From a bacterium (GTDB taxonomy: Bacteria; Hydrothermota; UBA3073; JACQXS01; JAQTXJ01): a DNA stretch of 64,000 bases. The translations under genes and the position numbers were made by a program. Where the stretch lies: positions 778 to 64,777 of the forward strand of contig JBAZNK010000002.1 of the NCBI GenBank assembly GCA_041649255.1, given 5' to 3'. Of the stretch, positions 9,458-35,479 are shown piece by piece. The stretch's first letter is position 1, and every line of letters begins with the position of its first letter. The notes under the pieces were generated by a model, which saw only the letters and a list, made by a program, of their open reading frames with translations, did no database searches and was not told the DNA's origin.

Positions 9458-12400
9458 ATGAGACAAAAAATTATGATTATGGTATCATTGATTTTAGGCA
9501 TATTTGTTGTGCCTCTTCCTATAAATGCTCATATTCCTACCCAAGCTACAAATCAAATTCTATATCCTTCTCCAGGGGATGTTATGTTTAGATATCTTAC
9601 TGCTGCTGGTATGGAAGGAGGGCATGTTGCTATTTTTTACCGATATAGAAGCGATGGAGTTCGAGAAATTATGCAAGCGGTGGGACCAGGAAGCATTAGT
9701 GCGCTTGTTGGTTGGAATTTTTTTATGAATGATATGAAACCCGATACTTCATATTGGGGATCATATTGTCAGACAAGAGGAAAAACATTACAAAAGAGAG
9801 AGGAATTAATAGACGCCGCTTATGATTGTATAGGAATTGCATATCCTGCATGGCCTTATCTTATTGGATATAAAGATCACCCTACTACTTTAAGGTGTGA
9901 TGGATTGGTTGAATGGACATATGAACATGTTTTCAATGAACCAATAAGCCCAGACGAGACCAGTTCAAATAACACTGGTATTGTTCCTCAAGATTATAGT
10001 AATGGTCTAGGACAACCAGTAGCTACTTGCCCTATTCATGGAGGACATCATAATATGTGTCCTACTCTACAACTGGAATGGCTCAATAATGAATCACAAG
10101 CCGTAGATGGACACGATATTTCTGGACCTCGCCACGGGGAACCATCCTATAATAGTTCTCCTATTCTATTAAATGCAACTGTTATACCATCAAATGGGAG
10201 TCCAAGTACAAAATTCTATTTTACGACTACTTATATAGATAATGAATTAGACGAACCTAATTATTCTTGTTCTGTTATAGTTGATGGGAATTATTATAAT
10301 ATGAGTAATGTTGGTGAAACTCGCTATAATGGAGAATATAGATATCCAAGTTCAGGAGGGCAGTCATTCAGTGTTGGAGAACATCATTATTACTTTTATT
10401 TTAGAAGTAACCGAGAAGGACAATACGATACAGTTCGTTATCCTGCTTCCGAAGATTTGATTTTCTATGTTACAAATTTACCAACAACAATTTTGGTTAG
10501 TGAAATAGTTAATCCTTCTACTTGTGAGCCATATCAGACAGTTAATGTTTCTGGAAGTGCAGTTTATGATAATGGCCCATCAGTAACAAGCGGAACAGTT
10601 ACAATTACAATATCTGGTGTCAATGTATGGACAACACCCTTAGATGTAAATGGTAATTATAGTAGAAATATAACTGCTCCAGGTTCTAATGGTAATTATA
10701 GCGTAAATGTAAGCGTATCTGACGGAAGCATAGCAGGAACTACTTCTCAATCATTACAGGTTCAGCCGGGAGGTGGAGGGAGCGGATATACATTTTATCG
10801 TAGTACCGTTTGTAGAGATGTAGACGATCCTTCGCCCTATGATCCTATTCATGAGACAATAGCATTTAATGAAAATTGTGACAAAGTTTATGTTTGGGTA
10901 CATCTTACGGATATATATAAAGCTTTGACAGTAAAATGGAAATGGTATAAACCCGATGGTAGTTTATATAAAACAAATACCTTTAATGTCCCGGACCCTT
11001 CTTCCGAAGGCTACGACTCTTGGGATTGGTATAAATGCTGGTATTGGTTGTCAAACATATCGGACATAGAGGGAGAATGGTCTTGTAGGCTTTATGTTGA
11101 TGATGGTAGTGGATATGACCGTTGTGCAACAGAAAAATTCGTGATTAGGTATGACTTAACAGAACACAAGATGTGTAAAGACATTGAAACTTCAGACCCA
11201 TATGACCCGATTAATCCTACAAATACATTTTATCAGACGGACAATAAGGCTATGACATGGATGAACATGGATGTGGCTTCGATTGGAGCCAAAGTGAAAT
11301 GGCAATTCTATGAACCGGCAGGGAGTCTCTATTCTTCTTTTGAAGATAGCGGGGATGCGCCGACTGATGACTATTGGGATTGGTATAAGTTTTGGGGTTG
11401 GATAAATATAACCGGACATGATGCAGTAAATAAATGTGGAAATTGGCAAGTTAAAGTACTTATTGAAGACCCTTCGAGCAACTGGGATGAAGAGTATGTG
11501 GACTATTTTCAAATACTGGAGTCTCCTGATAGTATACCAATTGTTGATGTAACAGTATCTCCAGAACAACCAATTGAAGGGACCAATATTTCTTTAAATA
11601 TTTCGGCTACCGATAATACCTATCTACAAAAAGTTACCTTATATTGGAATGACGGAACTCAACATATTCAAACATGGGATAGTATTTTCAGCAGTTCTTT
11701 TTCTAATACAAAAAATATTGGTACATATTCAGCAGGGCAGTCTATTTGGTACTATGCTAAAGTATACGATACTTCTGAGAATGAAGGACAAAGTATACTC
11801 AAAAATTTTGTTGTGTTGGATATTTCTCCTAACATAGTAGTTATACCAGATACTTTGCGATTTAAATGGGATGGGGGGAGCAAAAAAGAAACCTCTCTTC
11901 TTAGTTCCATTGAAGATACTATTTTCTATGATAATGGAACTCCATCATATATTAAACCTTACGACCCCTCTGATGTATCAAGTTGTAAATATTATGGAGT
12001 AAAGTTTACTCCAACAGAAAAAACAGGTTCTAAAGTTACAGGAGCAAAAGTTTATATAGGAAATCAAACAGGTTCTGCTTCAACATTTGAGATACATGTC
12101 TATGATGATAATGGTGGTAATCCTGGAACTCTTAAAAGTCAAGGGACGTTTAATGTTGGTTCAAGCAGTGGATATTTTTCACCAACTTTATCTACACAGC
12201 CATTGATAGTGGGAGATTTTTATATATTTGTAGGGCCGCAAACAATGGATGCTAATATAGGAATAGGGTTAGACAATGGACTTAGTTATGCTGATAGAAT
12301 GGGTGCTACAGATATCTTACCTGGTTGGTATAATCCGGGATATCCCGGAGATTTTGTGTTAAGGGCGAACGTAACTTATGAAAGCAGTGACACTTGTGAT

Positions 12401-12949
12401 ACAGTAAAAACAATGATAGTAACCAATAATGGGAATGCAGACTTAACTGTATCTAATATTACAAAAAATTATAAATGGATAACATCAATTACCCCTACTA
12501 ACTTTACTCTTATACCAGGTGATTCTCAAAATGTAATTGTAACAGTTGCTTGTAATGGATTGAGTAATGGAACTAATATTGGTTCTCTCAGTATTTTTTC
12601 AAATGATACTGATGAAAATCCATACATTGAACCAGTTAAGTTTGTAGTGACGAGTGTAGGCACAGAAGAAAAGCCCATATTCCCTGGTAAGTTTGTGCTC
12701 TTTTCACCATCTCCAAATCCTTCTATGGCAGGCACTGTAATTAAGTACGGCTTACCGGAGCAAGCAAACGTCTCATTAAAACTTTATGATGCATCGGGCA
12801 GATTGGTTAAAAATTTCTGCTCGGATGTCAAAGAAAAAGGCTATTACACAGCTAATATAAAAAATGGGGAGCTTAACGAAGGGATCTATTTCATTAAATT
12901 TGTTGCAGGCAATTTCAAGGCAACACGGAAACTTACGATATTAAGATAA
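9458..12949 (+). CDS. Large (1163 aa) secreted multidomain protein with T9SS C-terminal sorting domain; N-terminal region resembles a permuted papain-like (YiiX/NlpC-P60-like) fold
   Basis: Signal peptide. The N-terminal domain has His (GHVAIFYRY) before Cys (LRCDGLVEWTYEHV), a permuted arrangement. The middle region has Ig/PKD-like repeats. The C-terminus (KFVLFSPSPNPSMAGTVIKYGLPEQANVSLKLYDASGRLVK…GIYFIKFVAGNFKATRKLTILR) is the shared CTD. Confidence 0.8.
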   Translation: MRQKIMIMVSLILGIFVVPLPINAHIPTQATNQILYPSPGDVMFRYLTAAGMEGGHVAIFYRYRSDGVREIMQAVGPGSISALVGWNFFMNDMKPDTSYWGSYCQTRGKTLQKREELIDAAYDCIGIAYPAWPYLIGYKDHPTTLRCDGLVEWTYEHVFNEPISPDETSSNNTGIVPQDYSNGLGQPVATCPIHGGHHNMCPTLQLEWLNNESQAVDGHDISGPRHGEPSYNSSPILLNATVIPSNGSPSTKFYFTTTYIDNELDEPNYSCSVIVDGNYYNMSNVGETRYNGEYRYPSSGGQSFSVGEHHYYFYFRSNREGQYDTVRYPASEDLIFYVTNLPTTILVSEIVNPSTCEPYQTVNVSGSAVYDNGPSVTSGTVTITISGVNVWTTPLDVNGNYSRNITAPGSNGNYSVNVSVSDGSIAGTTSQSLQVQPGGGGSGYTFYRSTVCRDVDDPSPYDPIHETIAFNENCDKVYVWVHLTDIYKALTVKWKWYKPDGSLYKTNTFNVPDPSSEGYDSWDWYKCWYWLSNISDIEGEWSCRLYVDDGSGYDRCATEKFVIRYDLTEHKMCKDIETSDPYDPINPTNTFYQTDNKAMTWMNMDVASIGAKVKWQFYEPAGSLYSSFEDSGDAPTDDYWDWYKFWGWINITGHDAVNKCGNWQVKVLIEDPSSNWDEEYVDYFQILESPDSIPIVDVTVSPEQPIEGTNISLNISATDNTYLQKVTLYWNDGTQHIQTWDSIFSSSFSNTKNIGTYSAGQSIWYYAKVYDTSENEGQSILKNFVVLDISPNIVVIPDTLRFKWDGGSKKETSLLSSIEDTIFYDNGTPSYIKPYDPSDVSSCKYYGVKFTPTEKTGSKVTGAKVYIGNQTGSASTFEIHVYDDNGGNPGTLKSQGTFNVGSSSGYFSPTLSTQPLIVGDFYIFVGPQTMDANIGIGLDNGLSYADRMGATDILPGWYNPGYPGDFVLRANVTYESSDTCDTVKTMIVTNNGNADLTVSNITKNYKWITSITPTNFTLIPGDSQNVIVTVACNGLSNGTNIGSLSIFSNDTDENPYIEPVKFVVTSVGTEEKPIFPGKFVLFSPSPNPSMAGTVIKYGLPEQANVSLKLYDASGRLVKNFCSDVKEKGYYTANIKNGELNEGIYFIKFVAGNFKATRKLTILR

Positions 12950-19585: not shown

Positions 19586-22426
19586 ATGATAACCAAGGAG
19601 CAAGCCAAACAAAAAATCCAAAAACTCATTGATAAATACAATATAGAAAAAGAAGAACTTAATACCTACAACGAGGAAGCCACAAAAACTGGTTTTATTC
19701 AACCTTTTCTGAAAGATGTTTTAGGCTGGGATGTGAATGATCGCAACGAAGTTAGTCCCGAAGTAAAAATATCAAAAGGTAGGGTTGATTATGGACTCAA
19801 GATTGATGGTAAAATTAGGATTTTCGTTGAAGCAAAATCACTAAGTTCTAACCTTAATAAACATATTGAACAGGCAGTCGGGTATGGTTACAACAGGAAA
19901 GATGTTCCTTTTGTCCTTCTTACTGATTTTGAAGGAATAAAACTTTTTGACGTAACAATCAAACCGGATTCCAAAAACCCTCTAAAAGGTTTAAAAATGG
20001 ACCTTCACTGGGACCAATATATTGACCAGTTTGATAAATTATGGTTGATTTCAAAAGAATCTGCAATCTATGGGAAACTTGACAAATTACTTCTGATAAA
20101 ACCTAAAGACAGACTCCCGGTTGACAAAGCTATTCTTAAAGACCTTAGCGAATGGCGAGAAATCTTGGCTAAAGACATCTTTAAAAACAACCCCAAACTT
20201 TTCCACTCGGAAGACACGGAAAAAGATGCTGACTACCTGAGAGAAATAACACAGAAAATCCTTGACCGTCTAATCTTTATGCGATTCTGCGAAGACCGTG
20301 GCTTTATTGACCGTAGTTTCTTAAACGCATTATTTGAGGGAAGAACGGATTCTGTCGGCACTATTACAATGGTATTTCTTAAAGAAGAGTTTAAGCATTA
20401 TAATGGCATATTTGATAGTGATCTGTTCAGACCTCAGGAATGGGAAAATAATTTAGCAATTGACTTCAAAATTATGCGAAAAATCGTTCTGGATACTTAT
20501 AATCCTTACCAGTTTGATGTTATCCCGCTGGAGGTTTTGGGCAATATCTATGAACAGTATTTGGGTTATACTATCAGGTTGACCGAGCATCAGGTAAAAT
20601 ATGAGTTAAAACCGGATGTCCGCAAAGCAGGCGGAGTTTATTATACCCCCGAATATATCGTTGACTACATTGTCAAAAATACTGTTGGCAAATCATTACA
20701 AGAGTTATCCAACAAGAAAATAAAGAAACTTAGAATATTAGACCCAGCTTGTGGCTCAGGCAGTTTTCTTATCAGGGCTTATGAAGAAATGCTAAATTAC
20801 TACCAGAATCAGAAACCAAAAAAACAGAAAAAAATATCAACAAAACAGTCAGAATTAAATTTAGGGCACGAAAAAAAAGAACAACGCCTCACAATCCACG
20901 AAAAAGCAGACATCCTGTGCACCCATATATTCGGTGTAGATATAGATGAACAAGCAGTAGAAGTAACAAAGCTTTCCTTGATGTTAAAAATGCTTGAAGG
21001 CGAGCAGGATAGAATCCATGGCAAAGATCTCTTGCCAATGCTAAATAAAAACATCAAATGCGGCAACTCTTTGATTTCCGGCAATGTCTTAGAACTCACA
21101 AGATACTTTGGCAACGACTACTATAAAGTCAAACCTTTCAACTGGAACGAGGAATTCAAAGAGATTATCGTTGACGAGAAGGGGTTTGATGTCGTAATAG
21201 GTAACCCACCGTATTCACTTATTGGTTCTGATAGAAGGAAGGAACAATTGTATTTTAGAGATGGTAATTTCGTTATGGAATCTTATAAAACTAATACCTA
21301 TATGCTATTTTTAGAAAAAGGCTTAACTCTCTTAAAGAAGAAAAGTGCAGTTTTGGGATATATTATACCTAAATCTTTAGTATTTAACACTTTTTTTAAT
21401 GATGCAAGAAAATTTTTATTATCTAATTTTGCAATCCCCGAGATTATAGAGATAAAAGAAAAAGTTTTTGTTGATGCCGAGGTAGGAGATAGTATTTTGT
21501 TTTTTGCAAAAAAGGATAAAGATTCAGTCAAAAACCTTCTTAATTATTATAAAGTAAAAAATATATTCCCAGTTTTTGATATTATTGAACATCACAAAAA
21601 TATTCAAAGTAATTTATTACAGCAAAGTGAAATAAGATTTTTTGAGGACACAATAAAGATAAGAGCCAAAACACAAAGACTTGGCGATATATGTGTCGTA
21701 TCCAATGGGCTTAACCCTGGGAATATAAGACATATTTTATTATCATCTTCACCGGAGACTTCTAATCATAAAAAAATGTTACTTGGTAGAGACATAAAGC
21801 GTTACTTTACTCATTGGTCCGGAACATGGGTTAATTATGATTCAACCTTGAAAGAAAAGATTAAAATGACAGACATAAAATCAAAAGCAGGAATGACAGC
21901 ACAAAAGAAAGTAGATTTTGCTTTAAGAAATCCAAAAATATATTCCCCTAATAAAATTGTTATTAGAAAAACCGCTGATTGTATTTTAGCAAGTTATGAA
22001 AAAGAAGGGTTTTATTTTGATTCTTTATCCCACGGAATTCAACTCAAAAAGGAAGTTAACGGGTCAATCCTTTATATTTTGGGACTCTTAAATTCTAAAT
22101 TCATTAATTATATACATAGTAATATATCACAAAATAAGGGAAAAGTATTTGCAAAAGTTTTAGGTAAAAACTTAGAACGACTTCCTATTCGCACTATTGA
22201 TTTTTCTAACCCTGCCGATAAAAAGCTTCACGATGACATTGTTGCATTAGTTGATATAATGCTTGACTTAAACAAAAAACTCCAAACCGCAAAAGGCAAC
22301 GATAAAGACTACATCCAAAAACAAATCACCCAAACCGACAACGAAATTGATACCATAGTATATAAACTTTATAACATAACTGAGGGAGAGAAGAAGATAA
22401 TAGAGACTGTCGAATTACAAAAATGA
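19586..22426 (+). CDS. Type IIL/IIG (MmeI-like) single-chain restriction-modification enzyme: N-terminal PD-(D/E)xK nuclease (HsdR-N-like) fused to a gamma-class N6-adenine DNA methyltransferase and a C-terminal target-recognition region
   Basis: The N-terminus (TGFIQPFLKDVLGWD…GRVDYGLKIDGKIRIFVEAKS) carries a D…E-x-K nuclease motif. Methyltransferase motif I (LDPACGSGSFL) precedes motif IV (VVIGNPPY). The length (946 aa) and domain order match MmeI-family enzymes. No separate methyltransferase gene is present. Confidence 0.85.
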   Translation: MITKEQAKQKIQKLIDKYNIEKEELNTYNEEATKTGFIQPFLKDVLGWDVNDRNEVSPEVKISKGRVDYGLKIDGKIRIFVEAKSLSSNLNKHIEQAVGYGYNRKDVPFVLLTDFEGIKLFDVTIKPDSKNPLKGLKMDLHWDQYIDQFDKLWLISKESAIYGKLDKLLLIKPKDRLPVDKAILKDLSEWREILAKDIFKNNPKLFHSEDTEKDADYLREITQKILDRLIFMRFCEDRGFIDRSFLNALFEGRTDSVGTITMVFLKEEFKHYNGIFDSDLFRPQEWENNLAIDFKIMRKIVLDTYNPYQFDVIPLEVLGNIYEQYLGYTIRLTEHQVKYELKPDVRKAGGVYYTPEYIVDYIVKNTVGKSLQELSNKKIKKLRILDPACGSGSFLIRAYEEMLNYYQNQKPKKQKKISTKQSELNLGHEKKEQRLTIHEKADILCTHIFGVDIDEQAVEVTKLSLMLKMLEGEQDRIHGKDLLPMLNKNIKCGNSLISGNVLELTRYFGNDYYKVKPFNWNEEFKEIIVDEKGFDVVIGNPPYSLIGSDRRKEQLYFRDGNFVMESYKTNTYMLFLEKGLTLLKKKSAVLGYIIPKSLVFNTFFNDARKFLLSNFAIPEIIEIKEKVFVDAEVGDSILFFAKKDKDSVKNLLNYYKVKNIFPVFDIIEHHKNIQSNLLQQSEIRFFEDTIKIRAKTQRLGDICVVSNGLNPGNIRHILLSSSPETSNHKKMLLGRDIKRYFTHWSGTWVNYDSTLKEKIKMTDIKSKAGMTAQKKVDFALRNPKIYSPNKIVIRKTADCILASYEKEGFYFDSLSHGIQLKKEVNGSILYILGLLNSKFINYIHSNISQNKGKVFAKVLGKNLERLPIRTIDFSNPADKKLHDDIVALVDIMLDLNKKLQTAKGNDKDYIQKQITQTDNEIDTIVYKLYNITEGEKKIIETVELQK

Positions 22427-25400
22427 ACAATGCAAGTTTTTGCATAGATTTATTTAATACAAGAGAAAAAGCAACCATTATTTGGTTGTTAATTTTCGGG
22501 GTTTGGGCATTATCTAAAAAAAATATTAGAAGTTCGTTTTGGATAAATATAAAAGGGTTATTTGAAAAAAAGATTTTGGTCTTAATAATGGCTATGCTCG
22601 TTTACATTGGTTTTATATTTGCTATTCTGTCAAAAATAGGGATTTGGAATATTTCTTTGACAAAAGATACGGTTTTTTGGGTTTTGGGTTCAGCATTTGT
22701 GCTTCTGATAAATGTAAATAGAGCTATGGAAGACGAACATCATTTCAAAAAAATAATTTTAGATAACTTAAAGTTGATTTTAATAATTGAGTTTATAGTG
22801 AATCTTTACACCTTTAACTTTTGGATTGAGTTAATACTAATACCAGTGCTTTTCATGCTTGTTGCCGGAAGTGCCTTTACAAAAATAAAAAAAGAGAAAA
22901 AAGTAATTGATTCTATTTTGTCAGCTTTTGGTATTTTACTTATCGTTTTTACTCTCGTTAAAATATTTGAAAATTATCAAGCTTTTGCGAGTTTAGAAAA
23001 CTTGCGTGCTTTTACCCTACCGCTTCTATTAACTTTTGCGTATTTACCATTTTTGTACTTTTTTGCTCTTTTCATGTCTTATGAAAGTTTATTTGCTCAC
23101 CTTGATTTTTTTCTAAAGAAAGACCTAAAGTTAGCAAAATTCGCAAAACAAAAAGTTTTTACTTTATGTCATGTTAATCTTGGCAAACTTAACAGATTTT
23201 CAAAGGGAAGTGCTCAAGAGTTGATAAGACTAAACAATAGAAATGATATATTGAATATGATTAAAACTTTTAAAAGAGCCCGAATTGCCATTTCAAAAGA
23301 AAAAACAATTCAGAATATTAAATATTTTAGTTACTCACTGTTATTATCGTTATTTATTACCTGCATGATTCTAATTGTTTGTGAAAATAGTGGCTTTATA
23401 AAAGATTTTTCAAATAAGATTATAGATATAGCTATTGTATCTTTTATACTACTCTTTTTTTTACATTCTTGGAGTACAACACAGAAGTTCTGGCAGAGAT
23501 ATAAAAATACTAAACAGTTATCTACCCAATCCTTCATTAGCAATCTTGATTGTATAATTTTAACTACCGCATTAGTCATTATTTTCCTATTGATTTGTTT
23601 TTTAATTTACTCCGCTAAGCCTATTTTAATTTTTACAGGAGTTAATAATATTAGGCGGATAATACTAACTTTTATATTTATATTTATGTGGCTTTTATTA
23701 AGTTATTTCTCGAATAAAAAAACAGGAACAAAAAGCGTTGGGAATAAAAACATTTCTTCGCTTTCCGATGAACCTATAGATAATTCGGGACGGGATTTAT
23801 TAGGACGCGAAAAGTTTATTGATACTCTATACGATTCAATTATAAAACTTCCCTTCGAAGATTCTTTTGTTTATGGGCTTTCTGGACGCTGGGGAGAAGG
23901 CAAAACATCGGTAATTAAGCTATTACAAAATAAATTAGAAGAAAATAAAGAGTTTTTAATTGTAGACTTTAAGCCTTGGTACTTTAATGATGAAGAAACT
24001 ATATTTACTGCCTTTTACTCTCAACTTGAACAAGCTTTAAGTAAAGAGGCTATATTCCCAAATATAAAAAGAACATTTAATAAATATTTAAAACTCATTT
24101 CGGTAAGAGTGCCACAAACAGATATTAATATTAAACTTCCACATTGTGAGGAAACTTTAGAAGACGTTAGAGATAATATGCAAAAATTCATACAACAAAC
24201 CGAGAAGAAGATAATTATATTCATTGATGATATTGATAGATTAGAGAGAAAAGAAGTCTTGCTTGTTTTTAAGCTTGTTCGTCTTAATATGAATTTTAAG
24301 AATACAAGATTTATCCTGAGTTTTGATGTAGATGCGGTTCGAAAGCTTTTGAAAGGCAGTAAAAAGGAAGGGGATTTTGAAGATGCTAAAATAGACCCCG
24401 AATTTTTGGATAAAATTATTCAGGTTACTACTGATTTGCCAGCTATTGAACAAATATATATCGACCAGTTTTTATATAGTTATATTGATGGAAGAGTAAA
24501 TAGAACATTACTTAAAAATATCCTTCGCAAGTATCCAGATAAGTGGGAACAAATCTTTGATAATCCAAACGATGGATATCTATATTTTAAAAAAGGACTT
24601 CAAGAAAATGATTTTGTATTTATGACAGATTTAAAAGAGAAAGCAGAGGTTATAAAATTCTGGGAACCATATAAAGAAAATCTTTTCGATAAACTTGATG
24701 TTTCCCGAATCGATAGAGCAGAGTTTAGAAATAATTTTGACAATTTATATGAAACTCAAATTAAAACATTATTTAAAACTTTGCGTATCACTAAAAGATA
24801 TTTAAATAGTTTATGCTTAATGCTTCCAGCGGTTAAAGATGAAGTTGATTTGCATGATTTCTTTGTTTTAGAAGTAATACGGACTTTTTATTCGACAGTT
24901 TATGAAGATATATGGTTAAACCAAAAGTTTTATATTACAGAAAAAGAGGAAGAAAACAGAATGCCAAATGAAATAATTACGCATATAAATAAGATTGTTG
25001 AAAATCAACAAGAGAAGGATATTCTGATGAAGCTATTAAAGGCTATTTTCCCATTGGTAAATGCAAGTTATTATAACGCTAAAGAATCTAAAATGCCTGA
25101 TGTAGTGGCATGGAATAGAGAAAAAAGAAAAATTCACCATTTTGAATGTTTTAAGAGATATTTCATGCTTAGAGTCCCTCCATTAGAGATACCGGATGCA
25201 ACGGTAAAAAATACATTAATCGAATGGAATAAAGATAAAAACAAGATTGAAACTTCTATTTTAAAATTTCGCGAGAAAGATCAACTTTTAGAGTTTTTCC
25301 GTAAAATAAGTGTGTTTAGGAATGTTATAAATATAAAAGAAGAAATAATTCCTGATATTGCAAATATTGTTCTTAATAAATATAAAAAGGAATTAGAAGT

Positions 25401-26058
25401 TTATGAATACAGTGCGGCAAAAAAATTGTTAATGGAATTATACAGGGATAAAAAAGTTAATAAGTTTCCTGCAATAATAGATACTACAGGGAACAATGAA
25501 TTTATTATAAATAATTATTTCCTTGGAGAGAAGGAGGGAACTTTTTCTATATGGGCTAAAGTAACAGACGAACATAATTCATCTACGAAGCATATGTACA
25601 TAATAGGGACTGCTTCTGATGGTGGGCGAAGAATAGGGATTAGCGCTTCGCAAGGAACAGTAGACTTTTATATGAATGTATTTGCGATAGCAAGAATGGG
25701 AAGTAAAAAATGTTGGAGTTTCTGGTGTACAAATGATAAAGGAGAGGAAAAACTTATCGATTCGGATTCCAATAAGGCACTTTCCGTTGGATGGCATTTA
25801 TTTACCGTTTGTTGGTCAAAAACAAAAGGTTTTGTTAGTTTTTATATAGATACTATGTCAATTAATAAACCAAAGGAGGAGAAAGTTATTGAATCATGGC
25901 CTGTAACTTACGGAGAATGTGTTATAGGAACTTGGCCTAATAGAGCCAAAGAACATTATTTTAATTCAGAAATTGGGTACTGGGAAATATTTAACAAAGT
26001 AATATCTGAGGACGATATAAAGGAAATCTATGATGAGAAAATCAAATTTTTACCATGA
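22423..26058 (+). CDS. Membrane-anchored KAP-family P-loop NTPase with C-terminal LamG/ConA-like lectin-fold domain (1211 aa)
   Basis: The start overlaps the RM gene stop (ATGA). Residues ~1-440 form a polytopic membrane domain of roughly 10 hydrophobic helices. KAP Walker A (GLSGRWGEGKTS) and Walker B (IIIFIDDIDRLE) are present. The C-terminal ~200 aa (FSIWAKVTD…HMYIIGTASDGGRRIGISASQGTVDFYM…WHLFTVCWSKTKGFVSFYID…) has a LamG/pentraxin-like jelly-roll pattern. Confidence 0.8.
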   Translation: MNNASFCIDLFNTREKATIIWLLIFGVWALSKKNIRSSFWINIKGLFEKKILVLIMAMLVYIGFIFAILSKIGIWNISLTKDTVFWVLGSAFVLLINVNRAMEDEHHFKKIILDNLKLILIIEFIVNLYTFNFWIELILIPVLFMLVAGSAFTKIKKEKKVIDSILSAFGILLIVFTLVKIFENYQAFASLENLRAFTLPLLLTFAYLPFLYFFALFMSYESLFAHLDFFLKKDLKLAKFAKQKVFTLCHVNLGKLNRFSKGSAQELIRLNNRNDILNMIKTFKRARIAISKEKTIQNIKYFSYSLLLSLFITCMILIVCENSGFIKDFSNKIIDIAIVSFILLFFLHSWSTTQKFWQRYKNTKQLSTQSFISNLDCIILTTALVIIFLLICFLIYSAKPILIFTGVNNIRRIILTFIFIFMWLLLSYFSNKKTGTKSVGNKNISSLSDEPIDNSGRDLLGREKFIDTLYDSIIKLPFEDSFVYGLSGRWGEGKTSVIKLLQNKLEENKEFLIVDFKPWYFNDEETIFTAFYSQLEQALSKEAIFPNIKRTFNKYLKLISVRVPQTDINIKLPHCEETLEDVRDNMQKFIQQTEKKIIIFIDDIDRLERKEVLLVFKLVRLNMNFKNTRFILSFDVDAVRKLLKGSKKEGDFEDAKIDPEFLDKIIQVTTDLPAIEQIYIDQFLYSYIDGRVNRTLLKNILRKYPDKWEQIFDNPNDGYLYFKKGLQENDFVFMTDLKEKAEVIKFWEPYKENLFDKLDVSRIDRAEFRNNFDNLYETQIKTLFKTLRITKRYLNSLCLMLPAVKDEVDLHDFFVLEVIRTFYSTVYEDIWLNQKFYITEKEEENRMPNEIITHINKIVENQQEKDILMKLLKAIFPLVNASYYNAKESKMPDVVAWNREKRKIHHFECFKRYFMLRVPPLEIPDATVKNTLIEWNKDKNKIETSILKFREKDQLLEFFRKISVFRNVINIKEEIIPDIANIVLNKYKKELEVYEYSAAKKLLMELYRDKKVNKFPAIIDTTGNNEFIINNYFLGEKEGTFSIWAKVTDEHNSSTKHMYIIGTASDGGRRIGISASQGTVDFYMNVFAIARMGSKKCWSFWCTNDKGEEKLIDSDSNKALSVGWHLFTVCWSKTKGFVSFYIDTMSINKPKEEKVIESWPVTYGECVIGTWPNRAKEHYFNSEIGYWEIFNKVISEDDIKEIYDEKIKFLP

Positions 26059-26308
26059 TATAATTAGAAACACAATATAGATTCCCTATTTTAATTTTCC
26101 CGCATTATAATACCTCTACTATCAATAAGTTCATCTCCGAAATCCTCAAACAAGTATTTTAAATTTTCTAACTCTTTTTATTGGTTTTTCCATACAGAAA
26201 CCGTTCCTTTTCTGTATGAAATATTCCTATGGGAAATTTCCGCATATATCATGCTGTTTTGTATGTTCCTGTTGCCCAAGTAATAACATATCGGCGCCAG
26301 CGTCAATG

Positions 26309-26428
26309 TGCTTATTAAAGTGGAAATAAACACTGGTAAACACTAGAAGAATTGTAGGAAGCAAACCTATAAAAGCAGTTAAAGGAGGTAGAAAAAATGG
26401 TTTTTAAAGTATTTTCTCATTTTTGCCT
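26309..26428. repeat. Repeat A1: ~120-bp noncoding element with a paralogous copy at 30871..30983
   Basis: …cttattaaagtggaaataaacactggtaaaca(ca)ctagaagaat…ataaaagcagttaaaggaggtagaaaaaatgg…ttttctcat aligns with 30871..30983 at >80% identity. Confidence 0.8.
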
Positions 26429-26525: not shown

Positions 26526-26750
26526 TAGGGACAATAACTATTTGTTTTCTTCCGTATAAGCATGTTTTTTAATGTTTTCCAACTGAATACCTCATTACAA
26601 CTCTTTGGGGTTTTCCCTTTAAGGGTTGTTTAATTAGAGTTTGCGACGTGGGAGCATTTCCGCCTCAGGCGGACTAAGTTATCCAGCTCGCAGGATATCC
26701 ATTTTCTCAGGTTATGGAAAAAATTACTTTCCCCTTGACTTTTTGTTATC
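26526..26750. repeat. Repeat B1: ~225-bp conserved noncoding element (candidate structured RNA / regulatory leader) with a paralogous copy at 31586..31790
   Basis: The core …ttacaac(t/c)c(t/c)ttgg…ttttccctttaagggttgtttaattagagtttgcgacgtgggagcatttccgcctcaggcggactaagttatccagctcgcaggatatc…ttgact is almost identical in both copies and contains the hairpin ccgcctcaggcgg. A second hairpin shows a compensatory change (ccctttaaggg versus ccccttagggg). Confidence 0.75.
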
Positions 26751-28372: not shown

Positions 28373-29044
28373 ATGAGAAATATAGGTAAAAAAGAAGCGA
28401 TAGAGAATCTTAAAAACTGGGGAAAGGTTTGTCACCACCCACAGAAAGAAGTTCAAAAGCATATTAAACACCCCAGTCAACAGAAGAAAATAGATGAGAT
28501 ATTAAAAGATGTGCCTTTATTAAAAGTAAAGAGGGCAAAAGCTTTTTGGAATAAATGGTGCAAAGAGATAATGAAAAATGAGGAGTTGGAACAGATTTAT
28601 CGTGCATTGGACTCAAGTCTTAAAACAAACCGTTCTTATTGGCAATTCAAACGCGTTGCGATATTATTCTTGTATATTTATGGATACATATCAGATAAAG
28701 AGTTAGATTTGATTAAAAAAGATATAGATAAAACCGAGCAGATTTTTGATAAACATAGAAAAGAGATGAAAATAATTAAAGAAATAGACGACGCCCTGCG
28801 AGATAAGAAGTTCCGGGGACATATTCCTATGAATGTTTCCTGTCTGGCTATAGGAGCAAGCATTACGTTTACAAGAGCAGTAAAAGCAATTTTAGACGTG
28901 ATTGAAAGACTGCATAAAGATAAGGATTACAGAGAAGGACATTATTACGGTGGCACAATTGACTGGGATGAAGCTATTTTATTCAGCGGACAACCATATG
29001 AATGGTGCAAAAAAGGAGGGAAAAATGAAAGAGATGACAGTTAA
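28373..29044 (+). CDS. Hypothetical protein (223 aa)
   Basis: ORF with moderate coding signal; alpha-helical, Lys/Glu-rich. Confidence 0.5.
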   Translation: MRNIGKKEAIENLKNWGKVCHHPQKEVQKHIKHPSQQKKIDEILKDVPLLKVKRAKAFWNKWCKEIMKNEELEQIYRALDSSLKTNRSYWQFKRVAILFLYIYGYISDKELDLIKKDIDKTEQIFDKHRKEMKIIKEIDDALRDKKFRGHIPMNVSCLAIGASITFTRAVKAILDVIERLHKDKDYREGHYYGGTIDWDEAILFSGQPYEWCKKGGKNERDDS

Positions 29045-30191
29045 GTGTTTCAAAAAAGGGGATAAGGCGTTGGATGTATTAAAACTCAAACACAATCTTG
29101 AGTTTGATAAGCACAACAAACATACTGCATTGATTGAAACTTATAAAGTTTATTTTTATCCGAATAAAACCCTAATGATGATTGAAGGATTAAATAAAAA
29201 AGGCAAGATGATATTTCTTAAAAATTGCTCTACTGCTTCATCTTTTGGAGATGATAATAGCGTTTATATCTATCGGAAACGAAATAAAACAGACAAGAAA
29301 GTCCCCGATAAAGATTATAACTTTATTGTATGCAATAAAAGCGGACAGGTTATAGAACATGAATACTGTGGTGGATCTAAGAGTACTTACAAATATGACG
29401 CCAATAATCGTTTAATAGAAGAGGTCTCCGATGGCTCAGTTATCTGGAAATACAAATATGATAAAAAAGGCAGGAAAATATCGGAAACAAAATATGATGA
29501 CGATAACTCTATAAGGAATATCAGAAAGTATTATTACGATGATACAGACAGACTGTTGAAAAGAAAGCTTTCGGAAAAAATACTTTCCGGAGAATATCTA
29601 GATTCTTATTCTTTGTTTCATTACGATAAACATTCTAACCTTATTAAAGAGGAAAATTTTGACTGGAATAAAAAGGTATGCAAAGACTGGAATGAGTATA
29701 AATATTCTAAAGATGGGAAGCTGGTAGAAAAACGAGATTGTTGTATAGCAAAATCTAAAACAAGAGAAAGAGAAAAAATTAAATATTTTTATGAAAACAA
29801 ACTGCTTAAAGAGGAAATCGTGTATCTTGAAGAACAACCGGGATTATCTGATACAAGCGCTATAAAGAGTAGATTATATTCAAAGACCTGTTACACCTAT
29901 GATTCTCATGACAGGCTGATTAAGAAAGAAATATTTCAAGCTGATGGGAAATTAGACCATCGTTATATATGGGAATATGACAACAAGAAAGTTGTTATGG
30001 ATAAAAAAGCGTTAGCAACTCTTTCATATTTTCAAAACGAAGGATATAAAGTATTAATTAATAATAACAGAGTATTAAAGGAAAAGGAAAAAATGTTTGC
30101 CCCTACCCTCCTTAACGATTGTCATTGGGAATTTATAACTACTTACGAATATGATAAGTATGGCAGGCTTGCTAAGGTCACTATGCGTTGA
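29025..30191 (+). CDS. YD/RHS-repeat-like protein (388 aa)
   Basis: Degenerate YD repeats (YKYDANNRLIEE, KYKYDKKGRKISE, YYYDDTDRLLKRK, YTYDSHDRLIKKE, YEYDKYGRLAKV). The start is chosen at the ATG preceded by the strong RBS aaaaggagggaaaaATG rather than the upstream in-frame ATG at 28902. Confidence 0.5.
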   Translation: MKEMTVKCFKKGDKALDVLKLKHNLEFDKHNKHTALIETYKVYFYPNKTLMMIEGLNKKGKMIFLKNCSTASSFGDDNSVYIYRKRNKTDKKVPDKDYNFIVCNKSGQVIEHEYCGGSKSTYKYDANNRLIEEVSDGSVIWKYKYDKKGRKISETKYDDDNSIRNIRKYYYDDTDRLLKRKLSEKILSGEYLDSYSLFHYDKHSNLIKEENFDWNKKVCKDWNEYKYSKDGKLVEKRDCCIAKSKTREREKIKYFYENKLLKEEIVYLEEQPGLSDTSAIKSRLYSKTCYTYDSHDRLIKKEIFQADGKLDHRYIWEYDNKKVVMDKKALATLSYFQNEGYKVLINNNRVLKEKEKMFAPTLLNDCHWEFITTYEYDKYGRLAKVTMR

Positions 30192-30870
30192 GAGATATAA
30201 TACACCAAACAGTTAATAATAGTCAATAACACTAAATTAAAATAAAACTTACAAAAAAACGATTGATTATATGCGCGAACAAGTAGACAACGGATATGAA
30301 ACCCTCTATAAACAGGAACGCATGGAATTTCTCTTCGGGTAATTCAGAGAAGATATTTGCTATATTTTATCAACTGGTTACTATAAAGATGTTGTTCGTA
30401 CTTGCCGGTTACGGTATCGTCAAGTTTTTAAAGAGAGACAAAGAACTTGAGCCAGAATTAGGAATTAGATAGATTTGGGCGTATCGTTTAAAACGTCTCC
30501 CAAGAGACTCGGAAAAGCCAGACTTACCAAAATTCTCTTCACGGAGGCCATCCACAACATCCCCCTGCGTCCCATAAACTCTTTTTTAAGCACTTTTCCC
30601 AATGTATGCCTTTTTGCTTCTATACGCCCCAAATCGCTTAAAAAGGTCATTTAGGACACCCCTTAAAAAATACTCTACCCTGTGTCCTGCAATTTTTTTA
30701 GTCAAGTATAAGGAAGGGGCTAATTATGGTTCTTGTTTGAAAAAGTGTTCCGTTTTGGGAAAACAAATATTAGATTAGAGGGTAAACAAATTTTATTCTT
30801 TAAAATATTAAAGGTAAGTTTGTGATTACATAGGGAAAGATTAAAGCCTGAGAAATTGGGATTTAATACG

Positions 30871-30983
30871 CTTATTGAAGTAGAAATAAACACTGGTAAA
30901 CACTAGGAAGAATACTAGGGAGTAAACGTATAAAAGCGGTTAAATCAGGTAGAAAAATGGATTATTAAGTGTTTTCTCATTGG
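30871..30983. repeat. Repeat A2 (paralog of A1)
   Basis: See A1. Confidence 0.8.
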
Positions 30984-31489
30984 TAGCGCTGGTAATACTT
31001 ACAATAACGACTGCTAGGCTTTGCTGGATTTTGAAAAATCCTTCAGCAATTCCTAGCTATTTGGTAAATTGCTGGAATTGTTAGAATGAAAATAGGGGAT
31101 AGATTACTAATTTCTTGTCGAAGTTTTCAACATTCTCGATTAAATACCTAGTTTCCTTTGAGGTGAGGCGAGTTTAGTCGGTGGAGTTAGTTTAGTCCAA
31201 CAGAGCTGGATAGCAACCCCCAAGGACTATCGTCCAAGAGTTTGTTATAAGTTGAGTTAGTTAAGTTGGTTTCCACTAAAAAAGGCGGCCATGAAAAGAA
31301 GTGGCCAGTAGAAAGTCCTGCGAGCAGGATAGAAATCCCTCCAGTAAAAGACTCTAGACAAACAATCCTTAATTAACATAAGGGCTTGTAAGTAATCGCT
31401 AAAGCTTCAAAGGCTTCCTATAGATAGACATAAAAGAGGGATTAAATAGCGCACAAAATCACTTTTTTCTTATTTTTCCATTGTTAGCG

Positions 31490-31578
31490 TTGACAATGTT
31501 TCTAGCAAGGATTGACAAGTTTTGACAAAATCCATCAAAAACCTCTGTCAATTTTTGTCAATTTGACAAATTGACAAA
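31490..31578. promoter_or_regulatory. Iteron array 2: 7 copies of heptamer TTGACA(A/G) (5 direct, 2 inverted), in the same relative arrangement as array 1
   Basis: ttgacaa, ttgacaa, ttgacaa, (ctgtcaa), (ttgtcaa), ttgacaa, ttgacaa. Confidence 0.75.
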
Positions 31579-31585
31579 ATGAAAA

Positions 31586-31790
31586 TAGGGGGCGGGTTAC
31601 TAATTTTTTGCCGAAGTTTTCAATCTTTCCGAGCAAATACCTTATTACAACCCCTTGGAATTTTCCCCTTAGGGGGTTGTTTAATTAGAGTTTGCGACGT
31701 AGGAGCATTTCCGCCTCAGGCGGACTAAGTTATCCAGCTCGCAGGATATCTATTTTTTCAGGTTATGGGAGAAATCACTTTTTCTTGACT
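31586..31790. repeat. Repeat B2 (paralog of B1)
   Basis: See B1. Confidence 0.75.
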
Positions 31791-31825
31791 TTATAAAATA
31801 ATCCCTGTATACAATAAAAAACTTT

Positions 31826-33592: not shown

Positions 33593-35260
33593 ATGGAAAA
33601 CAAAGAATTAATAAGAGCTAGTATTTATGTCAGGGTCAGTACTGAACTCCAAGAAAGAGAGGGCTGTTCACTTGGTGAGCAAGAGAGAAGATGTAGAGCG
33701 TACTGTGAAAGTAAGGGATGGGTACTTTACAAGGTTTATAAAGACTCGGACTCCGGTCGGAATATTAACCGTAAGAAATTACAGGAGCTGATACAAGATG
33801 CAGGATTAGGATTTTTTAACGTAGTAGTTGTTTTCAAACTCGATAGGATGAGCCGTAATGTTAAAAATATGCATCATATAATAGAAGAGTTTGATAAAAG
33901 AGAAGTGAATTTTGTATCTATCACTGAGTCCCTTGATACGAGTAGTTCTGTCGGAAGACTTACCTTTAATATGTTATCTTCCATTGCTGAGTTTGAGTCT
34001 GATGCCATAGGAGAACGGGCTTATATGGGAATGCTTGGCAAGGCGGGAAAATGTAATTATAATGGCGGAACTATTTCTGATGGATATAAAGTAGAGAATA
34101 AAAGGTTAACAATTGATGAAACCAGAACTCCAATTATACGGCAAATTTTTGAATTATATTGCCAAGGCCATCCTGAAACTAAACAAGAAATGAGCACCAG
34201 CACTATAGCTAAGTGGCTCAATGAAAAGAACTACCATACAAATCAGCACACTACAAAGGCAGGCAAACTTATTGGAGGAAAAAAATGGGGAAGTGAAACA
34301 GTAAGAATAATTTTGTCTAACCCTGTATATTATGGTGTTTATACGTGGAATAAATATCGTATTAAACGTAAAGATGGTAAAGTAATTAGCCAACAAAGAG
34401 ATAGGAAAAATTGGGTATATATAGAAAATGCCCATGAACCTATTGTTTCAAAGGAAATATTTTTGGCTGCACAAGAAAAGCTTAAAGTGAAAAGGAAAGC
34501 CAGCGATAAAGAGTGTCAAGAAAACTATTTATTTAATGGATTATTACATTTTTCTCCCTGCGGAATAAAATTAGAGGGCTGGAAGAAAACAAGAGCAATA
34601 GAAGAAAAAGATGAAATAAAAACTTATGAAGATAAATACTACCGTTGCAATCCTTCCGGTTGGCGAAGGATAAGAGGTTTAAAAAGCGATGAACCACTTA
34701 CTCCGCATTGTGAAGATTGCAGGCTTAAATATGTGAGAAAAGAGGTGATTGAACCTTTTCTTATAGAACAAGTTAAGAATCTTCAGGGAAGACTACCAGA
34801 GATTAGGGAGTTAGTGGAAAAGCTGAAAGTATGTAAAGATACTGAAACAGAAGATTTAGATAATAAAGAGCAAAATTTTATAAGGGAAAAACGTATACTT
34901 GAAAATGAGAAACAGAGGCTATTTGACCTACTAAAGAAAGAGAATATTGCATTAGATAAATTTAGCCAACAGATAAAAGAAATTGCTGAGAGAGAAAAAA
35001 AAGCAGAAGATGAACTTTTTCTTGTTTCTGTTCAAAAGGCACAGTTATCTTATACTGAACAGGATGCTTCAGTGGCGGAGGAGCTTATACTCCAGTTTAG
35101 AGATTATTTGACTTGGGCTACTGATACGGAGAAAAAGCCACTTGTTCAAGCATTAGTAAAAAGAGTAGATATCGAGTCAAATGGTAAAGTAAATATAACG
35201 TTCAGACTTCCTCTTCAGAATAGGGAAGTCAGTAGTTCTGTTGTAACGATGGCGACGTAG
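33593..35260 (+). CDS. Large serine recombinase (resolvase/invertase N-terminal catalytic domain + recombinase domain + zinc ribbon + coiled coil)
   Basis: Catalytic-Ser motif RASIYVRVSTELQ, then FKLDRMSRN, a Cys cluster (CGIKLEG…CEDCRLKY) and a long coiled-coil C-terminus. Its TAG stop lies inside the tRNA-Met gene. Confidence 0.85.
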   Translation: MENKELIRASIYVRVSTELQEREGCSLGEQERRCRAYCESKGWVLYKVYKDSDSGRNINRKKLQELIQDAGLGFFNVVVVFKLDRMSRNVKNMHHIIEEFDKREVNFVSITESLDTSSSVGRLTFNMLSSIAEFESDAIGERAYMGMLGKAGKCNYNGGTISDGYKVENKRLTIDETRTPIIRQIFELYCQGHPETKQEMSTSTIAKWLNEKNYHTNQHTTKAGKLIGGKKWGSETVRIILSNPVYYGVYTWNKYRIKRKDGKVISQQRDRKNWVYIENAHEPIVSKEIFLAAQEKLKVKRKASDKECQENYLFNGLLHFSPCGIKLEGWKKTRAIEEKDEIKTYEDKYYRCNPSGWRRIRGLKSDEPLTPHCEDCRLKYVRKEVIEPFLIEQVKNLQGRLPEIRELVEKLKVCKDTETEDLDNKEQNFIREKRILENEKQRLFDLLKKENIALDKFSQQIKEIAEREKKAEDELFLVSVQKAQLSYTEQDASVAEELILQFRDYLTWATDTEKKPLVQALVKRVDIESNGKVNITFRLPLQNREVSSSVVTMAT

Positions 35261-35324
35261 CTCAGTTGGTCAGAGCAGAGGAATCATAATCCTTGTGTCG
35301 GGGGTCCGAATCCCTCCGTCGCCA
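35251..35324 (+). tRNA. tRNA-Met (anticodon CAU; elongator-type or tRNA-Ile2 lysidine type)
   Basis: Cloverleaf: acceptor GGCGACG/CGTCGCC, D-arm gctc-agttggtca-gagc, anticodon stem gagga/tcctt with loop aTCATAa, T-arm ggggg-tccgaat-ccctc, discriminator A. CCA is not encoded. Confidence 0.8.
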
Positions 35325-35479
35325 TAAAAAAATAAATAACCCCGCTAGCATGGTTTAAACTCCGAAAAAATACTTACCCAACAGACTTATAGAAAACACT
35401 TATAGTCAAACTGGGAGATAGGTAGAAGCATAAAGTTAAGAACTTAAAGAGAACAAAAAAATAAGATGTTTGTTTGAAA

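Follow-up and report, generated by a model that had tools for sequence, protein, structure and literature searches.

A Type IIG restriction-modification gene overlapping a three-part membrane KAP NTPase fusion in a Hydrothermota genome: two possibly stacked defence genes at a variable 3' flank

In a 64,000-nucleotide stretch of a Hydrothermota genome (contig JBAZNK010000002.1, positions 778 to 64,777; hereafter the window), a single-chain Type IIG restriction-modification (RM) gene, gene 1, overlaps the start of gene 2, which encodes a large membrane protein with a KAP-family P-loop NTPase domain at its centre. We consider the chances slightly better than even that these are two stacked, probably independent defence genes in one operon, lying in a low-GC region that is possibly a mobile island. 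The parts of the two genes, in window coordinates, are as follows.

19586-22426, forward strand: gene 1, a Type IIG RM enzyme of 946 residues with nuclease, methyltransferase and target-recognition domain (TRD) in a single chain (open reading frame (ORF), Pfam, PADLOC and relatives).
19748-19963, forward strand: PD-(D/E)xK nuclease domain of gene 1 (Pfam HSDR_N), with the motif GRVDYGL...FVEAKS at 19778-19840.
20618-21589, forward strand: gamma-class N6-adenine methyltransferase domain of gene 1 (Pfam N6_Mtase and Eco57I), with motif I, LDPACGSGSFL, at 20738-20770 and motif IV, NPPY, at 21203-21214.
21773-22189, forward strand: TaqI_C-type TRD of gene 1 (Pfam TaqI_C, 58.3 bits, cut-off 26.5).
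22423-22426, forward strand: ATGA overlap of the gene 2 start and the gene 1 stop, read directly from the sequence.
22423-26058, forward strand: gene 2, an ORF of 1211 residues encoding a three-part fusion of a seven-helix membrane module, a four-helix block with KAP NTPase and helical extension, and a Laminin_G_3 domain.
22423-23277, forward strand: module A, residues 1-285 of gene 2, a member of a widespread helical membrane family of ~290 residues (exhaustive search with residues 1-300).
23278-23310, forward strand: 11-residue linker, RARIAISKEKT, from the end of module A to the start of the KAP relatives (in the alignment, relatives P0002-P0007 start at ~296 and standalone module A proteins end at ~285-295).
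23317-23715, forward strand: four-helix membrane block native to the KAP subfamily, found by hydropathy and kept in P0002-P0010, with the cytoplasmic loop motif WQRYKNT at 23491-23511.
23806-24813, forward strand: KAP-family P-loop NTPase domain (Pfam PF07693), with Walker A, GLSGRWGEGKTS, at 23875-23910 and Walker B, IIFIDDIDR, at 24214-24240.
24814-25452, forward strand: helical extension kept in the KAP subfamily, residues ~798-1010 (alignment; AlphaFold2 (AF2) helices with a predicted local distance difference test score (pLDDT) of 70-90).
25522-26022, forward strand: C-terminal Laminin_G_3 (LamG), or concanavalin A-like, domain, residues 1034-1200, predicted to be cytoplasmic (Pfam PF13385).

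Both ORFs and their overlap, which an earlier note on this DNA had reported, were found again. The start of gene 2 at 22423 is backed by homology (standalone relatives of module A share its N-terminus, MN..SF.I.LFNNREKA). The long ORF is no product of misassembly, since DNA 100% identical to that of the window was found in two further independent assemblies (three in all, from different samples and different pipelines). Among operon junctions, a 4-base ATGA overlap is the most frequent; it indicates co-transcription of genes 1 and 2 and little beyond that.

For gene 1, the earlier description as an MmeI-like Type IIL enzyme was correct about the self-contained single chain with nuclease, methylase and TRD motifs, but the enzyme falls outside the MmeI family proper. 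HSDR_N matched residues 55-126 at 31.9 bits (cut-off 25.1), with the catalytic motif D67...E82-x-K84; Eco57I (118.6 bits) and N6_Mtase (69.9 bits) also scored over their cut-offs, and the PADLOC model REase_MTase_IIG matched with E = 1e-133. Among the MmeI models in Pfam, MmeI_Mtase passed (58.2 bits vs. a cut-off of 27), but MmeI_N stayed below its cut-off (21.6 vs. 27) and MmeI_hel, MmeI_TRD and MmeI_C gave no matches, and strict membership was rejected. The MmeI structure (5hr4) matched only with E = 4.4e-5, over residues 210-402, and among solved structures the CamA and BseCI methylases come nearest (~1e-15). At least 8,000 database proteins match gene 1 at E <= 1e-20, and more than 100 full-length relatives of 910-1050 residues, from many phyla, are 50-57% identical to it; because this family of full-length relatives is so large, we take gene 1 to be intact and ordinary. 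By its sequence it is a generic, common Type IIG enzyme of the Eco57I/TaqI_C type, only distantly related to MmeI. None of the flanking ORFs matched a methylase or HsdS, so that no separate methylase or specificity gene lies adjacent, and gene 1 would be self-sufficient, methylating host sites and cutting unmodified incoming DNA.

That the second protein is a KAP NTPase, as first proposed, was borne out. The KAP_NTPase profile (PF07693) matched residues 462-797 at 138.5 bits (cut-off 20), covering profile positions 1-286 of 293, and both the Walker A and the Walker B motif are present in gene 2 and invariant across its KAP relatives. KAP NTPases typically carry four transmembrane helices, and gene 2 has four hydrophobic helices at residues 299-431, directly N-terminal to the P-loop domain, with none inside that domain. 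AF2 modelled the KAP core with a pLDDT of 80-94. The best Foldseek matches of the modelled core and helical extension were the RdrA ring ATPase (8hra, 8fnt) and ORC/Cdc6, a likeness which, at the level of the model, supports a ring-forming switch.

Only 19 relatives of gene 2 were found in an index of 5.8 billion sequences, and they are sparse, patchy and scattered over unrelated phyla; among viral contigs, the KAP alignment gave just 4 distant matches. P0003-P0010 (740-880 residues) align to residues ~296-1010 of gene 2, that is, to the four-helix block, the KAP domain and the helical extension, and each ends in its own helical C-terminal domain of ~190 residues, whose place is taken in gene 2 by Laminin_G_3. 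P0002 (1109 residues, 49% identity to gene 2) has both the ~190-residue helical domain and LamG. Residues 1-295 of gene 2 are absent from all KAP relatives found. A relative in a Nitrospirales metagenome-assembled genome (L023:979-4100) is split into two adjacent ORFs, the upstream one of 314 residues also matching KAP_NTPase, and is probably a frameshift or a pseudogene. QatA, PglX/BREX and MADS labels for the two proteins were rejected, as scores stayed far under the curated cut-offs and the partner genes are absent. NCBIfam QatA reached 48.6 bits vs. a cut-off of 600, and no QueC, TatD or other Qat-type neighbours were found, which excludes membership in the Qat system.

The C-terminal domain, proposed earlier to be LamG or concanavalin A-like, is upheld at the profile level. 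When the C-terminal part was searched alone, PF13385 matched at 35.7 bits (cut-off 27.6, E = 1.2e-8; profile positions 14-151 of 151), and the annotation precomputed for the identical protein in the database lists Laminin_G_3 too. AF2 did not confirm the fold: pLDDT in this part was 25-40, below 50, and the strands that it predicted there are unreliable. A profile search of PDB sequences with the LamG part gave no match. The domain is shared only with P0002 (46% identity) and with P0140, a fragment of 162 residues that was the sole hit of a word-indexed search, and both keep the motifs WHLFTV...FYID and IG...F.S.IG. When a profile of the LamG part was run against all fetched KAP loci, no further KAP relative carried it. 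P0002 is the only other KAP protein found with LamG, and the three-part fusion was seen only in gene 2. A literature search found no publication linking KAP with LamG. The earlier note did not recognise the combination from any described defence system; since KAP NTPases fused to a variable antiphage C-terminus were characterised experimentally in 2026 (PMC13552941), it is a novel variation on that class and not without precedent.

Hydrophobic helices are confined to residues 1-431, none occurring in 432-1211, and strongly basic loops at 154-160, 218-301 and 348-376 agree with the positive-inside rule. From hydropathy and charge, gene 2 would have ~11 transmembrane helices (~7 in module A and 4 in the native block), with its N-terminus outside and its C-terminus inside. 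LamG is placed on the same cytoplasmic side as the P-loop domain because no hydrophobic segment follows residue 431 and because the basic loops fit the positive-inside rule; it would thus serve as an intracellular sensor or binding domain, not as a surface lectin. The ~440-residue polytopic membrane domain of the earlier note does contain N-terminal membrane helices, but it resolves into two modules, residues 1-285 belonging to a standalone family and residues 299-431 forming the four-helix block of the KAP subfamily.

The first of these modules belongs to a very large family. A search with residues 1-300 returned 3,489 cluster representatives at E <= 1e-3 and 656 at E <= 1e-30, the best of them 50% identical; counted as clusters at 50% identity, the family numbers at least 3,489. 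Nearly all relatives are standalone proteins of 280-300 residues, a few carry other C-terminal extensions (pentapeptide repeats in one), and none other among the best 150 representatives was fused to a KAP domain. Pfam, NCBIfam and PADLOC have no model of this family, and no solved fold matched it. With module A as a single query or as a small alignment, viral contigs gave no match; in phage, plasmid and E. coli collections there were no phage matches and only 4-5 plasmid records, and a Salmonella homologue had no E. coli match. Searches of all 144 fetched KAP and RM loci with phmmer and with a family hidden Markov model of module A returned nothing.

The genomic contexts of module A relatives are mixed. 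One standalone member (P0143, 295 residues, 44% identical to module A) lies between hsdM (N6_Mtase E = 1.7e-61) and hsdS with both junctions overlapping, on three contigs (L155, L156 and L157), whereas the neighbourhoods of three other standalone members (P0146, P0152 and P0157) contain no RM genes. L155:1-10231 (also L156 and L157) is a dense defence locus, in which hsdM, the 295-residue seven-helix gene and hsdS, all overlapping, are followed by a patatin and CD-NTase (CBASS) pair; hsdM then occurs once more, together with genes for a TIR-domain protein and 8xMP and a further hsdS. On an Arcobacter plasmid (CP134847.1; L149:5517-9323), a 440-residue protein with a seven-helix N-terminal part is encoded 100 bp downstream of a gene for a 794-residue AAA_13 (ABC-type) ATPase, with DUF3800, DUF6166 and recombinase genes in the vicinity, and this pair may be a two-gene module. 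In all, RM-coupled contexts account for 2 of roughly seven informative ones (four further contigs were too short to count), one of the two being the window itself, which is suggestive, and no more, of a residual link between module A and restriction systems. We think it rather improbable that the ~290-residue seven-helix family is an unrecognised membrane component tied to restriction systems or to defence more broadly. In gene 2 it is translationally coupled to a Type IIG enzyme and fused to a KAP NTPase, and in another lineage it sits between hsdM and hsdS. If it were such a component, the family might tether restriction complexes to the membrane or be a membrane effector triggered upon restriction failure. 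As a lead to the function of a very large unannotated membrane family, this is the more useful outcome of the analysis, and it draws on two links independent of each other: the family is fused to a defence NTPase and is inserted in RM operons.

Whether the RM-KAP pairing is conserved was examined from both sides, in 81 genome loci with KAP relatives (~10 kb flanks) and in 61 metagenome loci with gene 1 relatives. On the RM side, phmmer with gene 2 against the ORFs found a KAP gene in 0/61 loci, and module A likewise in 0/61. On the KAP side, the 96 upstream neighbours of KAP relatives included N6_Mtase, Methylase_S and HSDR_N only twice each, the remainder being mixed and including housekeeping genes. 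An iterative search of all ORFs placed methylase-like genes within ~10 kb in 8/81 KAP loci, and an N6-methylase was directly adjacent in 3/81 (L002, L014 and L055). The first of these (L002:897-12733) holds P0007, 58 bp downstream of hsdR and a fused hsdM/S and followed by TPR, STM3845-family, RVT_1 and trypsin-like protease genes. The closest KAP relatives adjoin nSTAND1 NTPase, YhcG nuclease, Schlafen AlbA_2 and PD-(D/E)xK proteins, and one has a Type I RM system beside it; close relatives of gene 2 thus have a defence-island flavour without a fixed partner.

The 3' flank of the RM gene tended instead to be occupied by something different each time. In 24 of the 49 RM loci with enough downstream sequence, another gene on the same strand follows the RM gene at a distance of at most 100 bp, often overlapping it, and these genes are mutually unrelated (HNH, GmrSD+HNH, AAA_21, AAA_15+OLD-TOPRIM, nucleotide cyclase, DUF4143, TPR, transposase and several of unknown kind). 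Examples, among L088-L148, are L092:3922-5727, L101:9016-10644, L119:8922-10079, L147:3071-5059 and L111:8930-9925. This flank of the Type IIG family has the look of a slot for variable cargo, and because no RM locus has a KAP gene and the downstream slot is filled by unrelated genes, the RM-KAP pair of the window is one instance of that slot, close to a chance adjacency within a defence context, and not a conserved system. The two-layer or regulated restriction module that the earlier note had suggested is accordingly unsupported as a dedicated conserved pair, the co-occurrence survey that the note itself had called for having given the 0/61 and 3/81 reported above. The same flank, with its tightly packed genes, several of them of defence type, could be mined for new systems.

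In the reading that we favour, gene 1 would provide first-line restriction and gene 2 an independent second line, a membrane-embedded KAP NTPase. The cytoplasmic Laminin_G_3 domain and the helical extension would bind a phage-derived trigger, and this binding would switch the ring-forming NTPase. Nucleotide-driven movement would then be passed on to the membrane modules, which would disturb ion or membrane homeostasis and so halt phage growth, much as PifA or Tmn does. Module A, captured by fusion from the standalone family, would probably add to the membrane effector or constitute it. The overlap with the RM gene would mean co-expression and layered protection, not an obligate two-component system. 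As judged from sequence features, the variation of the C-terminus on a shared core of four-helix block, KAP domain and extension matches the class of KAP proteins with a variable C-terminal antiphage region, and a defence role for gene 2 is proposed by analogy with it. Four observations weigh against this reading. The Laminin_G_3 call comes from a single profile match in a part where the AF2 model is unreliable. Many distant KAP loci have housekeeping neighbours (AcrB, SecA, an ammonium transporter), and a defence role of every KAP protein is not assured. Apart from the recombinase described below, the neighbours in the window give no clear defence or mobile-element matches, so that the "island" amounts to GC content and unannotatable ORFs. 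Finally, the module A relative embedded between hsdM and hsdS hints at an RM link beyond stacking.

This last point belongs to an alternative that we regard as unlikely, in which the two genes form one functional unit resembling PrrC in EcoprrI: the KAP protein, or module A, would associate with the restriction enzyme and be set free, killing or arresting the cell, once that enzyme has been disabled by an anti-restriction factor of the phage. Such a guard would account for the translational overlap of genes 1 and 2, for the overlapping starts and stops around the 44%-identical module A relative on three contigs, and for the placement of P0007 just behind an RM operon and of the KAP genes of L014 and L055 next to methylase genes. 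It also speaks for a guard that Tmn, a membrane NTPase of the YobI family, synergises with PrrC, Gabija and Septu (10.1101/2022.08.21.504612). However, neither the KAP gene nor the seven-helix module occurred in any of the RM-relative loci, ~90% of KAP loci lack a methylase gene out to 10 kb, and the three other standalone seven-helix members sit in contexts without RM genes. Moreover, the RM partners differ in type (Type I vs. Type IIG), which argues against a specific protein-protein interface.

It is quite unlikely that gene 2 has nothing to do with defence and is a membrane NTPase that regulates the assembly of an envelope or signalling complex, its LamG domain binding a cellular ligand and its adjacency to the RM gene being accidental. 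The housekeeping neighbours of distant KAP relatives point that way, as do standalone seven-helix members that adjoin metabolic genes and the 2004 description of the KAP family, which proposed the regulation of membrane complexes (as cited in PMC13552941 and PMC13001434). On the other hand, the closest relatives with the four-helix block are found in contexts rich in defence genes, the best PADLOC match of gene 2 is PifA, and gene 2 itself is surrounded by low-GC ORFs that have no recognisable family. The sparse, patchy distribution of its few relatives over unrelated phyla and their variable C-termini are, furthermore, typical of conflict systems.

Very improbable is the view that the 1211-residue ORF is really two genes (a ~290-residue membrane protein and a ~920-residue KAP protein) joined by a sequencing error or a very recent inactivating stop loss, which would make the fusion meaningless: the junction does fall exactly where standalones end and KAP relatives begin, the residue aligned to the start Met of P0002 is an Ile (ATT) one substitution away from ATG, and no second fused example occurred among the best 150 module A representatives, but the DNA is identical in three assemblies from different samples and pipelines, the frame stays open through the 11-residue linker with no frameshift, and a natural stop-loss fusion would still yield a fused protein.

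Around the proposed pair of stacked genes, GC content is low (0.29-0.34) from ~14 to 26 kb, and the ORFs from ~13.5 to 33 kb are almost without family assignments. One further feature lies ~7.5 kb downstream of the pair.

33593-35325, forward strand: large serine recombinase gene of 555 residues (Pfam Resolvase and Recombinase; 33593-35260), whose stop overlaps the 5' end of a tRNA-Met gene (35250-35325).

The junction of recombinase and tRNA-Met may mark one border of a mobile island containing the RM-KAP pair and the low-GC ORFs. No att-like direct repeat of the tRNA-Met delimiting such an island was found. Outside the low-GC stretch, the gene at 9458-12949 carries a type IX secretion system (T9SS) sorting domain, which suggests that the host is Bacteroidota-like. 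The stretch 22233-22260, in the 3'-terminal part of gene 1 and ~160 bp upstream of the gene 2 start, matches the sigma-70 promoter consensus at 11 of 12 positions (ATGACA, 16-nt spacer, TG-TATAAT); the host may use other promoter types. A promoter and terminator scan of the region found sites no more numerous than in shuffled sequence, Bacteroidota-type promoters being outside the scan model. Downstream of the KAP gene, where the intergenic stretches are long, a non-coding element of ~150 nt occurs twice (26586-26742 and 31636-31792, ~89-92% identical with a near-identical 51-nt core), each copy upstream of an ORF (27017.. and 31826..). It has a stable predicted fold (-46.9 kcal/mol, z = -3.2) and no Rfam match. 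Listed with it were further repeat pairs at 26305-26346 / 30865-30906 and 31060-31149 / 31553-31642. Between the two copies of the element lies an ORF with RHS repeats (28902-30191, E = 1.1e-13), which may be a polymorphic toxin fragment.

Among known systems, gene 1 resembles Type IIG enzymes such as Eco57I and MmeI in having an N-terminal PD-(D/E)xK nuclease, a gamma N6-adenine methylase (motif I, NPPY) and a TRD in one chain. It differs from MmeI in that its TRD is of the TaqI_C type and in that the MmeI-specific domains other than MmeI_Mtase are missing or subthreshold.

The placing of a second-line NTPase gene inside or directly after an RM operon recalls PrrC in the EcoprrI Type I locus. 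PrrC, however, is soluble and combines an ABC-type ATPase with an anticodon nuclease in one fusion, and its RM association is conserved, whereas that of gene 2 is not.

RdrA forms heptameric rings. As the closest solved fold to the KAP core and extension (8hra, 8fnt; Foldseek E = 2.4e-7, probability 1.0), this component of the RADAR system resembles gene 2 with a TM-score of only ~0.25 and an identity of 12-13%; it is soluble and partners the deaminase RdrB, and no RdrB-like gene is present at the window locus.

The likeness to Tmn, which senses T2 RIIB and exports Mg2+ (PMC13001434), is functional only, both proteins being membrane-anchored oligomeric NTPases with cytosolic sensor arms, although in gene 2 the oligomer and the sensor role are presumptive. 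Tmn belongs to a different P-loop family, and gene 2 was rejected as a member of the Tmn/YobI family: Tmn has two helices inserted in its P-loop domain after Walker A, while gene 2 has no hydrophobic segment in residues 432-1211.

PifA of the F plasmid, a KAP-family protein that excludes T7, is described, as cited in PMC13001434, as depolarising the membrane and letting nucleotides leak out when T7 infects, in the manner of abortive infection. It shares the KAP P-loop with gene 2 and is its best PADLOC match (E = 8e-45), but the match is limited to profile positions 7-261 of 720, the ATPase part. PifA also lacks LamG and, again as cited in PMC13001434, has no transmembrane helices.

The closest parallel in overall design is a class of proteins in which a KAP NTPase is joined to C-terminal regions of diverse kinds. 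In 2026 such proteins were shown to act as antiphage defences encoded by a single gene and to protect Enterococcus, with both the Walker B motif and the C-terminal region required for defence (PMC13552941). Like gene 2, this class, with EF_KAP as its example, combines N-terminal membrane helices, a KAP NTPase and a variable C-terminus in a single chain, and lies beside recombinases and defence genes. Compared by description, EF_KAP has two helices, one of them within the KAP domain, vs. ~11 that are all N-terminal in gene 2; it also has an unassignable C-terminal region in place of Laminin_G_3, and no captured 285-residue module. Gene 2 would thus add a ligand-binding Laminin_G_3 fold and a captured membrane module to this class of antiphage NTPases, and it offers a convenient construct for separating the part that senses from the part that acts.

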